A stretch of DNA of 64,000 bases, taken from an uncultured Gammaproteobacteria bacterium (GTDB lineage Bacteria; Pseudomonadota; Gammaproteobacteria; CAISUE01). The first letter of the stretch is position 1; each line of letters opens with the position of its first letter. This document shows, piece by piece, positions 30,001-36,000 of the stretch. Position numbers: made by a program. The DNA lies in the NCBI GenBank assembly GCA_903888615.1, contig CAISUE010000046.1:1016-65015 (forward strand). Direction: 5' to 3'.

Positions 30001-33000
30001 AGGGTTCACCCTTTAAATGACGCTGAACGAGCGAATTCCCTGGGTCGGTCGGTGGAAGAAGAAATTACGATTCCTTCGCATTCGCTATGGCTCAGTTTTT
30101 CGAGCTCTCCGGCATCCAGTTCAATGAAAAGTGCTAACATTTCACTTGGTACGGATTACTCCTCTACTGACGGTGCGCGCGTTATGCCCCTATCTATAAA
30201 AAAGAGATAAACGTTGCGATAATGTTATAATTGCACTAATAACACCTACTTATTTTTTTCGGAGTATTTCATGACGTTTCAACACATCATTGTGCCAACT
30301 GTCGGTACTAAAATCACCGTGAATGCTGATAATTCACTGAATGTTCCTCAGCAACCGATTATTCCTTTTATTGAAGGCGATGGTATTGGTGCCGATATTA
30401 CTCCAGTGATGATGAAAGTGGTCGATGCGGCTGTCAAAAAAGCGTATGACGGTGAACGGTCGATTGCGTGGATGGAAGTGTATGCGGGTGAAAAAGCAAC
30501 GCAGGTTTATGGTACCGATGTGTGGTTGCCCGAAGAAACGTTAAGCGCTATTCGTGATTATGTGGTGTCGATCAAAGGCCCATTAACGACGCCAGTCGGT
30601 GGCGGGATTCGCTCTTTAAATGTCGCTTTACGCCAACAATTGGATTTATATATCTGTCTGCGGCCAGTGCGGTATTTTTCCGGTGTACCAAGTCCTGTGA
30701 AAGCACCCGAAAAAGTCGATATGGTTATTTTCCGCGAAAATTCTGAAGATATTTATGCTGGTATCGAGTGGGCCGCCGATAGTGTAGAAGCTAAAAAAGT
30801 CATTGAATTTTTGCGCACTGAAATGGGCGTCACTAAAATCCGTTTTCCTGATCATTGTGGCATCGGTATTAAGCCCGTCTCTAAACAAGGCACTGAGCGT
30901 TTGGTGCGCAATGCTTTTCAATACGCGATCGATAATGATAAACCTTCAGTGACTTTAGTGCATAAAGGCAATATCATGAAATTTACCGAAGGTGCTTTCA
31001 AAGATTGGGCTTATGCCTTGGCACAAGCAGAATTCGGTGCGACATTGATCGATAAGGGCCCGTGGATGCAATTTGCTAATCCTAAAACCGGTAACATGAT
31101 TATCCTCAAAGATGTGATTGCCGATGCTTTTTTACAACAAATTTTATTGCGACCAGACGAATATAGCGTCATTGCGACCTTAAATTTAAATGGCGATTAT
31201 ATTTCCGATGCACTCGCCGCTGAAGTCGGTGGCATTGGGATTGCGCCAGGGGCTAATCTAAGTGATAGTATCGCGATGTTTGAAGCAACGCACGGTACAG
31301 CACCCAAATATGCAGGTTTAAATAAAGTCAATCCGGGTTCAGAAATTTTATCAGCAGAAATGCTGTTGCGCCATCTGGGTTGGAGCGAAGCGGCTGATTT
31401 AATTATCCAAGGCGTTAACGGCGCGATTAATGCTAAAACCGTGACGTATGATTTTGAACGTTCGATGCCAGGTGCCACCTTAGTGACGTGTTCGGGTTTT
31501 GGGGACGCGATTATCACGCATATGGAATAATGCTTAAACTCGCCGTTTTGGGCAATCCCATTGCCCACAGCCGTTCACCTGAAATTCATAAAGCCTTTGC
31601 CCTTCAAGCAGGGATTTGCCTCGATTATCAAAAAATATGGGTCCCCATGGGTGGCTTTATCAAAGCTGCCCAGGCGTTTATTGAAGCCGGTGGTGTAGGC
31701 TTTAATATTACCGCACCGTTTAAACACGAAGCATTTTTGTGGGCTACCACGCATTCACCTCGCGCTCTTCTGGCTCAATCGGTCAATACCCTTAAACTTA
31801 ATGCCGATGGCAGTTGTTATGGTGATAATACCGATGGCGCTGGGTTTATGGCTGATTTAATCGTTAATAAAAATTTCAATGTCAGGGCTAAAAAGATCGT
31901 TATTCATGGTGCCGGCGGTGCCGTATGCGGCATTATTCCCGCTTTGCTCGCTCAAGCGCCGCAGCAATTATTTTTGATGAATCGCACCGACCAAAAAGCT
32001 TTAGAGTTAGTGCAGCGGTTTTTACCCTTAGGTCCTATTCAAGCAATAGCCTATGGCACAGCGTTGACGGCTATTGATGTGATCATCAACGGTAGCAGCA
32101 TTGCGTGTCAAGATTTCAATGGTTTAAGCAGCGTACAATGCCGTGCTGATGCACGAGCGTATGATTTAAGTTACGCTCATAAACCCACACCGTTTATGGC
32201 GTGGGCAACAGCTAGAGGCATTAAACACAGCTATGATGGTTTTGGCATGTTAATTGAACAAGCCGCGTTAAGTTTTCAATTATGGACAAAATTTAGGCCG
32301 AATACCTTATTAATGCACGATATTTGTAGCAGCATGCGCCGCGACTAATTTTTTTACCCAGCTTTGGGGTAATTGACTCAAGACATCCACGGGTCTTTTT
32401 TGCAAATAATCTTGAACCCGTTTGGTAAGATAAGGGCCATGAAATACTTTGTGATAAAGTACGAGTAATTTTTCAAATAACGTTTGCCGCGGCCTGCGAC
32501 TGGGATGGGTAATTAATTTTTGAATGGTTGAGGGGCAGACATCAATGCATTTGGCGATACGTGAATAATTGTAACCTGCGCCTTCGATTAAATCACGAAT
32601 CATTAACAACCAATAGGCATTATCGGCATTATTGGTTTGGGCAAAATGAATGGATTGGTGCATCGCAAAACTTTTTTTAGGTTGGTTAACTAACAGGGCT
32701 TGAATTTTGACGTCCGACATGCTGATTTTCATGATCATACGATTCTCCATGGGCAAGTTTAAAATAAATTACTGCGTTTTCGAGTTGATATTAAAAATCA
32801 AACGATCAATCAACTTTGTAGAGAGAATATTAAATGAATGTTCAACTGAAAACAATATAAATTTGCTTTATTTAACCATTTAAATAATTTTTATTACGAT
32901 AATATTCATTAAATTATTGAAAATATTAAACATTTATACTTTCAACCAATCTCCTCACCCATTCTCTTGGCAAATGGTCTAAAACATCAAAAGGCCGTTT

Positions 33001-36000
33001 TTGTAAATAATCGTGAACCCGTTGCGTGATATGAGGGCCATTAAAAATATGATGATAGAGCACTAATAATTTTTCAAATAACATTTGCCGTGGCTTCCGG
33101 CCTGGATGGGTGATTAATTTTTGAATGGTTGAGGGGCAGGCATCAACACGTTTGGCAATGCGAGAATAATTGTAACCGGCGCCTTCGATTAAATCACGAA
33201 TGATAAATAACCAATAAGCATTATGCACACGGGCCGCTTTGGTATATTCAATCGATTGTTGGATGGCGAAAAATTTTTTAGTTGTATTCAATGATGTTGC
33301 TTGTTTAGCTGCTTCAGACATGTTGATTTTTTTTGCCATCACTTATTCCTGTATTAAACGATCAGTCAATTTATCAATGGTATAGTAATTGAATGATCAG
33401 TTAAAAACAAGGCGGATGTGGCGAATGATTGTGAAAGATCCTGAAGCCGGTTATATTGGATGTTTTTCAATTAAGTGTGAAGGTGTTATGTCAACGGCTA
33501 CACTGGCGATTAGTTTAGGGGAACCAAGCGGTATTGGCCCCGATATTTTAATTCAAGCCGCTCAAACTAAGCGAACGGCTTCATGGTTGATTTTTGGTGC
33601 AGCGACGGTATTGCAAGAGCGTGCAAAAATCTTAAACCTACCATTGCGGTTAGAGCCCTATTCAACAGATTTATGCCTTAGCAAAGAGCCTGGAGAATTA
33701 ACGATTGTCGATTACCCTTGTGTCAATGGGGTGAAAGCGGGGTGTTTAGATGCCACGAACAGTGTGTCAGTACTTGCGGCTTTGACGGCTGCAGCAAATT
33801 ATTGTCAAGCGTGCTCTGGCCGTGCTCTTGTCACCTTGCCTATTCACAAAGGCATTATCAACAGCGCGAATATTCCCTTTACCGGCCATACGGAATATTT
33901 AGCGAAACAGTGTTCCGTTGCAAAAGTAGTGATGATGTTAGGCAGTGCTCGCTTAAACGTAGCTTTGCAAACGATTCACGTACCTCTTAGTCGCGTGCCG
34001 AGTTTGATTACAGCAGTTGAATTGACATCAACCTTAGCCATTATTCGCCATTATTGGCAAAAATTTTACGCTAAAAATCCGCGGGTGCTGGTTTTGGGTT
34101 TAAATCCGCATGCGGGTGAAGATGGTTATTTAGGCTGTGAAGAGCAGGCGATTATCATTCCAACACTGCAACGGTTAAGGACCGAGGGTTATGCTTTGTT
34201 AGGGCCGCTTGCCGCTGATACGGCCTTCACACCTCAAATTTTGGCCAATTGTGATGTCGTGCTTGCCATGTATCACGATCAAGGCTTAGCACCTTTAAAA
34301 GCATTGGAATTTGGCAAAATCGTTAATTATACCTTAGGCTTGCCCTATATTCGCACGTCGGTCGACCATGGGGTGGCACTGGATATCGCCGGGACGGGAC
34401 AGGCGGTTATCAACAGTTTTTTAACCGCCGTAGCGGCGGCGGAATATTTACTTCAACAAGGATAAGGCATGCATATCAAACAAACGGTGGTGTTAATCAC
34501 CGGTGGTGGTTCAGGAATAGGGGCTGCTACGGCGCGGCATTTAGCCAGTTTAGGGGCTTTGGTGGCATTGATAGATTGCAATAGCGATGCTGTGAATTCA
34601 GTAGCAAACGAAATCCATGGCTTAGGCTTGGTGGCCGATGTGACCGATGAAGAGCAAGTGGCACAAGCGATTGAAACGATTCAATCTGAATGGGGCGGAT
34701 TGCGGGTTTTGATTAATTGCGCTGGCATTGCGCCTGCTAAACGTATTCTTGGTAAAGCGGGTGTGATGCCATTAAGCGATTTTCAACATGTCTTACAGGT
34801 CAATGTCATCGGCACATTTAATGTCTTGCGGTTAGCTGCGATGGCCATTGCTACAGCAGAGCCACTGGATAGTGATGGCAATCGCGGTGTGATTATCAAT
34901 ACCGCTTCGATCGCCGCTTACGAAGGCCAAATCGGTCAAGCAGCTTACAGTGCATCCAAAGCCGCGATTGTTGGCTTGACGCTGCCAGCGGCGCGGGAAT
35001 TAGCCAATGTTGGTATCCGCGTCATGACCATCGCACCGGGTTTGATGAAAACGCCATTGCTGCAAGCTTTTCCAGCAGAAGTGCAGTTCAGTTTAGCGCA
35101 AAGCGTCAATTTTCCGAAACGCTTAGGTGAGCCTAATGAATTCGCGCGTCTAGCGGCGCATATCATCGATAATGATTATTTGAATGGTGAAGTGATTCGT
35201 TTAGATGGTGCGTTGAGGATGCGCGAGAAATAAACTATGGGTTAAAAAAATACCAACCTTTTTCTGATAAAAAGCCATCTAAGGGGATATCCCAAGGATC
35301 GTGCGGCAAGGTATCAAGCCATTGTTCTTGAAAACCCACGCCAATGAGCAGCGGCTTTTTAGTGCACTGAGCCAATAATTGATCATAAAAACCGCCGCCA
35401 TAACCCAAGCGATAACCTTGTTGATCAATTGCTAATAGAGGGATTAGTAAGAGATCCAAATGATCGACAGTCACTAAAGGTCCATCCAAGGGTTCTTGAA
35501 TGCCCAACGCTGTTTTCATTAAGCGACTGTCAGCGTGCAATTCGCGAAAATAACCTGGCTGCGTGATTAAGGGAATAAAAATGTGCTGTTGCTGCTGCTG
35601 CCAGCAATCTTTATGCAAAGCAGCCGTCGCGCATTCGACACCTGTGGCTAAATAACTGCCGATTTTAGTTAATGAAGGTTGACGTTGCTGCCAGTGTTGG
35701 CCAATAGCGCGTTCAGCGGTAATTTTAGCGTTATGCGTTAAATTTCGGCGTTGTTGTTTGAAGTGACTGCGTAACGCATTTTTCGTCATAAAGGTAGGAG
35801 CGTTTGTAACGTTTGCCAGACTAATTGGGGTGTTAATTCAGTAAAACAAGCCGGTTGCACTGGACTAATCTGGGTGTAATTGCACTTATGTAAATAACAG
35901 GGCGCGCAGGCAAAGCGTGATTGCAAATGCACTTGATGTAAGCCTGTGGCGCCAATCAATTCGGCATCGGTAGCGCCATAAAGTGTAATGGTAGGGATAT

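Follow-up and report, generated by a model that had tools for sequence, protein, structure and literature searches.

Two Small Genes between aroE and pdxA

What are two small, related genes doing among the housekeeping genes of an uncultured freshwater gammaproteobacterium, and how long have they stood there side by side? The window analyzed here is a 64,000-nt stretch of contig CAISUE010000046.1 (GenBank assembly GCA_903888615.1), in which two tandem minus-strand genes, copy A and copy B, lie between aroE (+) and pdxA (+), with pdxA divergent from copy B. A first-pass annotation had described them as a recent duplication of helix-turn-helix (HTH) genes of no recognizable family, possibly a lineage-specific regulator pair. 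Our analysis suggests to us, with moderate confidence, that the pair are anciently duplicated repressor paralogues that autoregulate and cross-regulate.

The listing of open reading frames (ORFs) reproduces exactly the two reverse-strand ORFs first noted, 32310..32756 (148 aa, TTG start) and 32926..33342 (138 aa, GTG start); the coding sequences (CDSs) are likely shorter. Copy A likely starts at ATG 32738, preceded by GGAGAA-N6, for a CDS of 32310..32738 (−, 142 aa, database protein P0013), and copy B likely starts at ATG 33339, preceded by AGGAA, for a CDS of 32926..33339 (−, 137 aa, database protein P0001). These ATG starts are preferred because a ribosome-binding site (RBS) precedes each, the gene calls P0013 and P0001 agree with them, and they fit the conserved N-termini of the homologues. 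Copy A is the A-type paralogue, with the signatures KCIDVCPSTIQKLITHPSRRPRQ and PQSWV, and copy B is the B-type paralogue, with KRVDACPSTIQKLITHPGRKPRQ and PREWV. Against the profile of the family that the two define, copy A scores 147.9 bits, and a search with this profile found no further family copies elsewhere in the 64-kb window.

Copy A and convergent aroE (+, 31488/31530..32348) share 39 nt at their 3′ ends (32310-32348), just as first described. The neighbors of the pair are the housekeeping genes pdxA, aroE, icd, rplT, and thrS, together with a short-chain dehydrogenase gene. The AT-richness of the flanks is also real; the GC content is 0.22 in the A-B spacer and 0.25-0.27 in 200-nt windows at 32700-32999, as compared with 0.43 for the whole window. 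The coding GC of the pair itself is 0.38-0.40, close to the window mean.

Age of the Duplication

The proteins encoded by A and B align without gaps over 134 aa with 64% identity (BLASTP, E 2e-67), which bears out the long conserved core reported in the first-pass annotation. Identical residues make up 49/60 of the core, 16/40 of the N-terminal part, and 21/34 of the C-terminal part. The nucleotide identity, given there as about 85%, proved to be lower, at 72% over 402 aligned coding bases; even codons 41-100 reach only 83%, with 20-codon windows inside them at 85-88%, mostly because the amino acids are conserved there. The resemblance between A and B is far above chance, yet it does not point to a recent event. 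Between the copies, the nonsynonymous divergence (dN) is 0.24, the synonymous divergence (dS) is 1.1, and dN/dS is 0.22, with synonymous sites near saturation. Gene conversion was considered along with recent duplication and rejected, as the dS of the core (0.66) is somewhat below that of the rest but still large.

Related metagenomic contigs (loci numbered with L; database proteins with P) show how the copies have been kept. The order pdxA, B, A, aroE, icd is found in L004-L006, and L003 carries pdxA and B followed by a second copy that is cut by the contig end. In L007, the contig end cuts the first of two copies, and a 99-aa ORF and then aroE come after the second, while in L011 two inserted genes separate the two copies from aroE; L012 has one copy adjoining aroE. 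At least four other lineages therefore carry two copies, near aroE-icd in L004, L007, and L011, and beside pdxA in L003. The A orthologues of the window and L004 share 76% amino acid identity with a dN/dS of 0.045, and the B orthologues share 79%, above the 64% between paralogues. Over all orthologue comparisons the amino acid identity ranges from 76 to 88% and dN/dS from 0.05 to 0.11, and dS is at least 1 both between paralogues and between orthologues (dN/dS 0.05-0.22). A neighbor-joining tree places the A copies of the window and L004 together, and likewise their B copies. The reading frames are unbroken in all species compared, and the RBSs are conserved. Both genes are real and under purifying selection.

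The hosts of the pair are distinct lineages, with 79-87% identity among their ThrRS sequences and only 53-60% among their AroE sequences. The nearest named ThrRS relatives, Sedimenticola and Methylomonas, are only 69-70% identical, and the host is therefore placed only as an uncultured gammaproteobacterium. These comparisons indicate that the duplication is older than the split of these species and that selection has kept both copies, because dS is near saturation, the paralogues pair with their positional counterparts, and two copies occur in other lineages. The supposed recency of the duplication is not supported, as the pair predates the split of the lineages that share it. For annotation, the gain is a set of corrected gene models for the pair and a duplication recognized as old and selectively maintained.

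Two observations concern the DNA around the copies in the relatives. The A-B spacer of L004 (6420-6900) holds a GC-rich insert of ∼480 nt, similar to a repetitive extragenic palindromic (REP) element or a miniature inverted-repeat transposable element (MITE), in which a 22-nt repeat (ACTGCCAAGCAGCCWTCCCTGG) occurs four times, together with a perfect 17-nt hairpin; the window has no such insert. The stretch between the second copy and aroE differs by genome (L011 1370-3320; L007 901-1200; in the window, copy A overlaps aroE) and looks like a local insertion hot spot. One of the extra genes in L011 encodes an orphan of 211 aa and the other a 439-aa protein that matches Polysacc_synt weakly, below threshold; the extra gene in L007 is the 99-aa ORF.

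A Predicted XRE-Type Fold in an Uncurated Family

Neither window protein has a Pfam match at threshold. The only models approached are HTH_23 and HTH_38 (15.7-17.6 bits vs cutoffs of 24.6-27), and these sub-threshold matches cover 23-33 residues that correspond to helix 2, the turn, and helix 3. No match was obtained for the window proteins in NCBIfam or PADLOC, PHROGs returned only weak matches (transposase, E 0.39), and the family profile matched no PDB chain sequence at E ≤ 10. HTH_3 and HTH_31 are not matched by the two window proteins even at E ≤ 10; 11 of the 42 wider family members match them weakly (best E ∼1e-5). The first-pass annotation was right to call the family unrecognizable, in that Pfam, NCBIfam, PHROGs, and PADLOC all lack it.

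AlphaFold2, run on a 16-sequence alignment, gives a confident model made up entirely of helices, nine in number, with a predicted local distance difference test score (pLDDT) of 88.9, and a predicted template modeling score (pTM) of 0.84. In this model, the core is a five-helix lambda-repressor/XRE-type HTH domain that spans about residues 42-114. The segment GAGYNYSRIAK...PSTIQK, which had looked like an HTH by eye, falls where the predicted fold places helix 2 (YSRIAK) and the recognition helix (PSTIQKLIT). Two N-terminal helices and a C-terminal helical tail are clade-specific additions to this core. A Foldseek search against PDB and viral structures gave generic XRE matches only (E > 0.1). 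The searches turned up no strong homology to transposase N-terminal domains or phage regulators, which would have recast the genes as mobile-element remnants; HTH_23 and HTH_38 stay at 16-18 bits and the Foldseek matches at E > 0.1. The residues invariant across the clade are A54-A62, S70, I72-L75, R81, P83, and R84, and the wider family carries the signature W..MI.DL..GAGYSYSRIA.R..VSPSTIQKL....R.PR...F..L..LY.K.F.

The family is rare. A word-indexed search of 5.8 billion proteins returned 21 close relatives, none informatively named, and from 1.84 billion cluster representatives HMMER and the family profile picked out 73 clusters at E ≤ 1e-3, of which 37 reach E ≤ 1e-10. A scan of one genome per GTDB species gave one locus, in an unclassified gammaproteobacterial genome bin, and a metagenome scan with the family gave a single short locus. 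A tblastn search of 72,556 plasmids with P0001 and P0039 gave no match. With 21 proteins in 5.8 billion and one GTDB species genome, "lineage-specific regulator pair" is a fair description.

Response regulators usually carry their output domain after the receiver domain. Two family members are fused to a receiver (REC) domain, with REC at 4-115 and the family domain at 146-219 in P0037, and REC at 26-136 and the family domain at 162-241 in P0052. Because the family domain occupies the output position in these two proteins, a DNA-binding output role is suggested for it. The fusions provide independent support for the family domain as a DNA-binding effector. DNA binding by the HTH domain seems to us far better founded than the particulars of the operators discussed below. 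What we have, then, is an uncurated sequence family of a well-known kind, the small XRE-fold autoregulators. If this is true, the XRE-type repressors gain a further uncurated family, recognizable by its clear signature motif; beyond that, small autoregulated HTH paralogues are an ordinary kind of finding.

A distant, single-copy member, P0021, is encoded in L008 (6001-7779) and is 48% identical to copy B over 63% of its length. Its neighbors are a Cupin_8 gene and a gene for a 440-aa protein with faint ankyrin-repeat matches.

Paired Boxes in Promoter-Like Elements Upstream of Each Copy

Upstream of all clade members examined (ten regions, from the window and six other loci) lies an element of ∼60 nt that consists of TTGTTT (or TTGATT, TTGAAT), a spacer of exactly 17 nt, and TAnTAT. 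The intergenic DNA around the element diverges while the element stays. A first box, TTGAWCRTTCAWTTAAT-like, occupies the spacer and runs into the −10-like hexamer, and a second box, TTGAWTGATCGTTTAAT, follows 18-32 nt downstream, counted from the start of box 1; the core common to both window promoters is TGAWCRTTCAWT. From the invariant positions and the invariant spacing we infer that the element is a promoter.

For copy A, the putative promoter and candidate operator region covers 32797..32855 (−), with a −35-like TTGTTT at 32850-32855 and a −10-like TAATAT at 32827-32832. Its box 1, TTGAACATTCATTTAAT (32829-32845, −), fills the 17-nt spacer, and its box 2, TTGATTGATCGTTTGAT (32797-32813, −), lies downstream. 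For copy B, the corresponding region is 33353..33410 (−), inside the intergenic space between B and divergent pdxA, with a −35-like TTGTTT at 33405-33410, a −10-like TACTAT at 33382-33387, box 1 CTGATCATTCAATTACT at 33384-33400 (−), and box 2 TTGACTGATCGTTTAAT at 33353-33369 (−). The two boxes of copy B form an inverted repeat with arms at 33354-33371 and 33387-33404. These arms are 83% complementary in the window, with 12/12 positions pairing in L004 and 16/17 in L003, and from species to species a change in one arm is accompanied by a change in the other.

A position weight matrix (PWM) built from 20 boxes rises above the shuffled background at only two places in the 64-kb window, namely the two promoters (22-25 bits vs a shuffled maximum of 19). 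The matrix also recovers held-out sites. The A-type boxes upstream of the cut second copy in L003 (5120, 5152) score 24.7 and 24.8 bits, and a site upstream of a distant member in L015 scores 21.2 bits.

Other roles for these boxes were considered and set aside. Box 2 as a second promoter was rejected, as no conserved −10 follows it. An RNA element was also rejected; Rfam matched only tRNA in the window, and the 5′ untranslated region (5′ UTR) from box 2 to the start codon is variable, at ∼15 to 90 nt.

GATC sites (TGATCG or TGATCA) are present in box 2 of both promoters and in box 1 of the B promoter, so that Dam methylation could influence box binding in a host that has the enzyme. A separate observation concerns pdxA, for which both the ORF (358 aa, TTG 33389) and the database call (346 aa) appear to start too early. 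Conservation of the PdxA N-terminus (MSTATLAISLGEPSGIGP) begins near 33488-33491; a start there would leave ∼150 nt of divergent promoter space common to pdxA and copy B.

A Candidate Third Site Upstream of a 634-aa Orphan Gene

The 12-mer TGAWCRTTCAWT has three exact matches in the window, as compared with 0.22 expected. Two are the source promoters, and the third (37524-37535) directly follows a perfect TATAAT, 45 nt before the ATG at 37580 of an orphan gene (37580..39484, +) that encodes a 634-aa protein with several hydrophobic stretches. The region 37495..37539 (+) is a tentative third target, with a strong, near-consensus sigma-70-type promoter (TTGATA, 16 nt, TATAAT at 37517-37522) directly followed by a box-like palindrome, GTGAACGTTCAATCAAT (37523-37539). 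Within this site is a perfect 10-bp palindrome, TGAACGTTCA, and both L003 and L004 retain TATAATGTGAWCGTTCAATYAATT at the orthologous position. In L004, the site equals that genome's own B box 1 at 12/12 positions.

Orthologues of the 634-aa protein are encoded at the same place in L001 and L004; the protein itself has no Pfam, NCBIfam, or PDB sequence match. Because of the position and conservation of the box, we consider the gene a reasonable, if tentative, candidate output, the box being its sole link to the pair.

A Proposed Circuit and the Evidence That Weighs on It

The account that we favor, of repressor paralogues controlling themselves and each other, would work as follows. Each gene most likely has its own sigma-70-type promoter, with a family-specific box in the spacer between −35 and −10 and a related box just downstream. 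Both proteins would be expected to read the same boxes, because the recognition helix (PSTIQKLITH) and the R-x-P-R loop are identical in A and B. By blocking RNA polymerase, each protein would then repress both its own promoter and that of its paralogue, and the divergent N-terminal 40 and C-terminal ∼35 residues may give the two proteins different partners, oligomeric states, or inputs. The 634-aa gene would probably be repressed too, as at least one output, and the putative B operator, lying in the pdxA-B spacer, may also affect pdxA. If this account is true, it supplies candidate operators and a target gene, and the circuit can be tested in E. coli despite the uncultured host.

Several observations weigh against this account. 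A generic promoter scan did not flag the two promoters, which match the consensus at only 7-8 of 12 positions. The distance between box 1 and box 2 ranges from 18 to 32 nt among genomes, which is unusual for a fixed dimer-of-dimers operator, and there is no inverted repeat upstream of copy A, which leaves the binding geometry ambiguous. The conservation of box 1 could partly reflect the −10 element that it overlaps, and the sequence would be compatible with activation as well as with repression. The third site scores 12.8 PWM bits, below the shuffled maximum, and the probability of one extra exact match by chance is ∼0.2, such that the weight of this site comes from its conservation across species.

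Distant Relatives in Mobile-Island Modules

Gene neighborhoods were retrieved for four distant members, at 30-42% identity (L016 7072-9251; L024 4944-6714; L018 6851-8480; L020 4367-4960). The gene for P0039 is immediately upstream of csrA and diverges from an HTH+Peptidase_S24 repressor gene; its island is rich in integrases and includes a VUT gene. The layout is repeated for P0043, preceded by a 95-aa ORF and followed by a gene for a very large protein whose RHS-repeat matches are faint. P0101 is also divergent from an S24 repressor gene and lies upstream of an AfsA-containing biosynthetic cluster, and P0057 (L020) is in an island with AlpA and HTH_17; the N-terminus of P0057 is weakly CsrA-like (24.4 bits, below the cutoff of 27).

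This arrangement matches that of the lvrRABC module of Legionella integrative conjugative elements and plasmids, in which lvrR is LexA/CI-like and lvrC is CsrA-like (PMC3864950). In Legionella plasmids, we confirmed the order VUT, lvrR (HTH_3+S24), a "Vir protein" gene, a 157-174-aa ORF, a 59-67-aa ORF, and csrA; in L. geestiana (L030), the module is alike up to the small ORF, after which an HTH regulator stands in place of csrA. The distant relatives hold the lvrA/lvrB position, divergent from the S24 repressor gene and upstream of csrA, often with VUT beside the repressor. P0039 and P0043 have both flanks and P0101 has them in part, whereas the window pair has no lvrR-like or csrA neighbor.

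Profile-profile and single-sequence tests detected no homology to the Legionella Lvr proteins, and the idea was rejected. In hhalign, the family profile reached 3.0% probability against the alignment of the LvrA-position "Vir protein" and 0.3% against that of the 157-174-aa ORF, and hmmsearch with the family profile found no match in Legionella loci L021 and L022 at E ≤ 10. The family thus resembles the Lvr proteins only in where its genes lie.

A bolder proposal, which is speculative and which we think unlikely to hold in full, is that the family is an unrecognized DNA-binding part of LexA-like-repressor / X / CsrA modules, which would be the counterpart in architecture of lvrRABC on mobile islands of uncultured Gammaproteobacteria, and that in this clade it was captured by the chromosome and duplicated into a stable two-repressor circuit. 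Its two proteins, alike in their recognition helices and different in their partner-binding ends, could possibly form a heterodimer or toggle, and would control the lineage-specific 634-aa membrane protein and perhaps pdxA. Outside Legionella, LexA-like-repressor / CsrA modules are marked by the wider family, and this could aid the annotation of such cassettes in environmental gammaproteobacterial integrative elements. The recurring link of the wider family to these modules, together with the candidate small regulon, is the most attractive open point.

Alternative Explanations

The same relatives suggest that the pair may be a domesticated remnant of a mobile LexA-like repressor / X / CsrA switch module that has lost its partners and now does little beyond regulating itself, a reading that we find unlikely but deserving of some weight. 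It draws on the distant members at 30-42% identity that lie between a divergent S24 repressor gene and csrA in L016 and L024, on the relative beside an S24 repressor gene in L018/L019, and on the weakly CsrA-like N-terminus of P0057, as well as on the integrases in L016, the AlpA and HTH_17 genes in L020, the VUT genes near L016, L018, and L024 that recall the Legionella plasmid modules, and the AT-rich spacers around the pair. Near the pair itself, however, there is no integrase, csrA, S24 repressor, or flanking repeat, and the neighbors are housekeeping genes. The two copies stay beside aroE-icd (L004, L007, L011) or pdxA (L003) across lineages whose ThrRS identity is 79-87%, both are under purifying selection, and their coding GC is near the window mean. 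The remnant explanation concerns origin and is compatible with autoregulating, cross-regulating repressors. The boxes themselves admit a different objection, namely that the inverted repeat upstream of copy B, and the boxes generally, form a hairpin in transcribed RNA or in DNA (for example, a 5′-UTR stability or attenuation element) instead of protein-binding operators, and that the proteins act elsewhere. The arms upstream of copy B do remain complementary through two-sided changes in three genomes while the distance between them varies from 4 to 15 nt, a pattern typical of hairpins. We nevertheless regard this as quite improbable, given that copy A is preceded by the same boxes without an inverted repeat, that box 1 is inside the 17-nt spacer and would be untranscribed if the promoter is correctly placed, that the third site consists of one 10-bp palindrome and lacks a partner arm, and that no Rfam family matches.

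A further possibility is that the proteins are not classical transcription factors at all and instead serve as XRE-type antitoxins or as partner-binding adaptors of the anti-repressor or anti-sigma kind. The structural matches include HigA, HipB, MbcA/ParS-type antitoxins, and SinR, and SinR binds its antagonist SinI; the helices added at the two ends could serve to bind partners, and a truncated PemK-like ORF is found 3.3 kb away (28744-28983). Between that ORF and the pair, however, lie icd, aroE, and a 329-aa gene, and L007 lacks the ORF; no locus has a toxin-like gene next to either copy, PADLOC gives no match, and the receiver-domain fusions point to a DNA-binding output, all of which make such a role very improbable in our estimate. 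Hardly any credence is left for the idea that one or both ORFs are nonfunctional, either as decaying duplicates or as chance ORFs in AT-rich DNA. The ORFs are short, their surroundings are AT-rich, no curated family covers them, and copy A overlaps aroE, but orthologues at 76-88% amino acid identity, a dN/dS of 0.05-0.11, intact frames, conserved RBSs, and a confident predicted fold stand against it, and the substitution pattern has effectively refuted it already.

Comparison with Known Regulators

In the structural model, the closest analogues of the pair are the controller (C) proteins of restriction-modification systems, C.EcoT38IS, C.Kpn2I, C.Esp1396I, C.AhdI, and C.BclI. C proteins have paired operator boxes over their own promoter; here, two related putative boxes overlap a promoter-like element upstream of each copy. 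The identity to these proteins is only 7-17%, and the window proteins are ∼60 residues longer, with the two N-terminal helices and the C-terminal tail. Unlike the genes for C proteins, the pair has no methyltransferase or endonuclease gene nearby, either in the window or in the related loci, and its two genes form a conserved tandem of paralogues in a housekeeping neighborhood.

The pair shares the predicted five-helix lambda-repressor-like fold with the Cro/C1 (XRE) superfamily (HTH_3, HTH_31, HTH_26; P22 C2, 434 repressor, SinR, ClgR, HipB, HigA) and differs from it in lacking an HTH_3 or HTH_31 match and in having its own signature outside Pfam, NCBIfam, PHROGs, and PADLOC. Among Pfam models, the window proteins touch only those for transposase and resolvase HTH domains (HTH_23, HTH_38, HTH_7, HTH_28/29), all below gathering cutoffs. 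There is no transposase, catalytic domain, or inverted terminal repeat near the pair, and the predicted five-helix XRE fold contrasts with the three-helix homeodomain-like bundle of those domains. From the XRE antitoxins (HigA, HipB, MqsA-like), the pair differs in that no toxin-like ORF is adjacent to either copy in any locus.

Other Features of the Window

A replication origin was considered and is not supported; the cumulative GC skew climbs steadily from ∼32.9 to 36.4 kb, with just a small local dip at ∼32.8-33.0 kb. The PemK/MazF-like toxin ORF mentioned above (28744-28983, +, 79 aa) lies between rplT and the 329-aa orphan gene, looks truncated, and has no obvious antitoxin gene beside it. 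The orphan (29221-30210, +) encodes a 329-aa protein with no Pfam or NCBIfam match. At the same position by icd, L011 has a 326-aa ORF without Pfam matches and L004 has a cut ORF, while L007 has none. A tRNA-Val (GAC) gene (25388-25462, +) is immediately upstream of thrS, and the longest thrS ORF (TTG 25418) runs into it; the true start of thrS is therefore further downstream.

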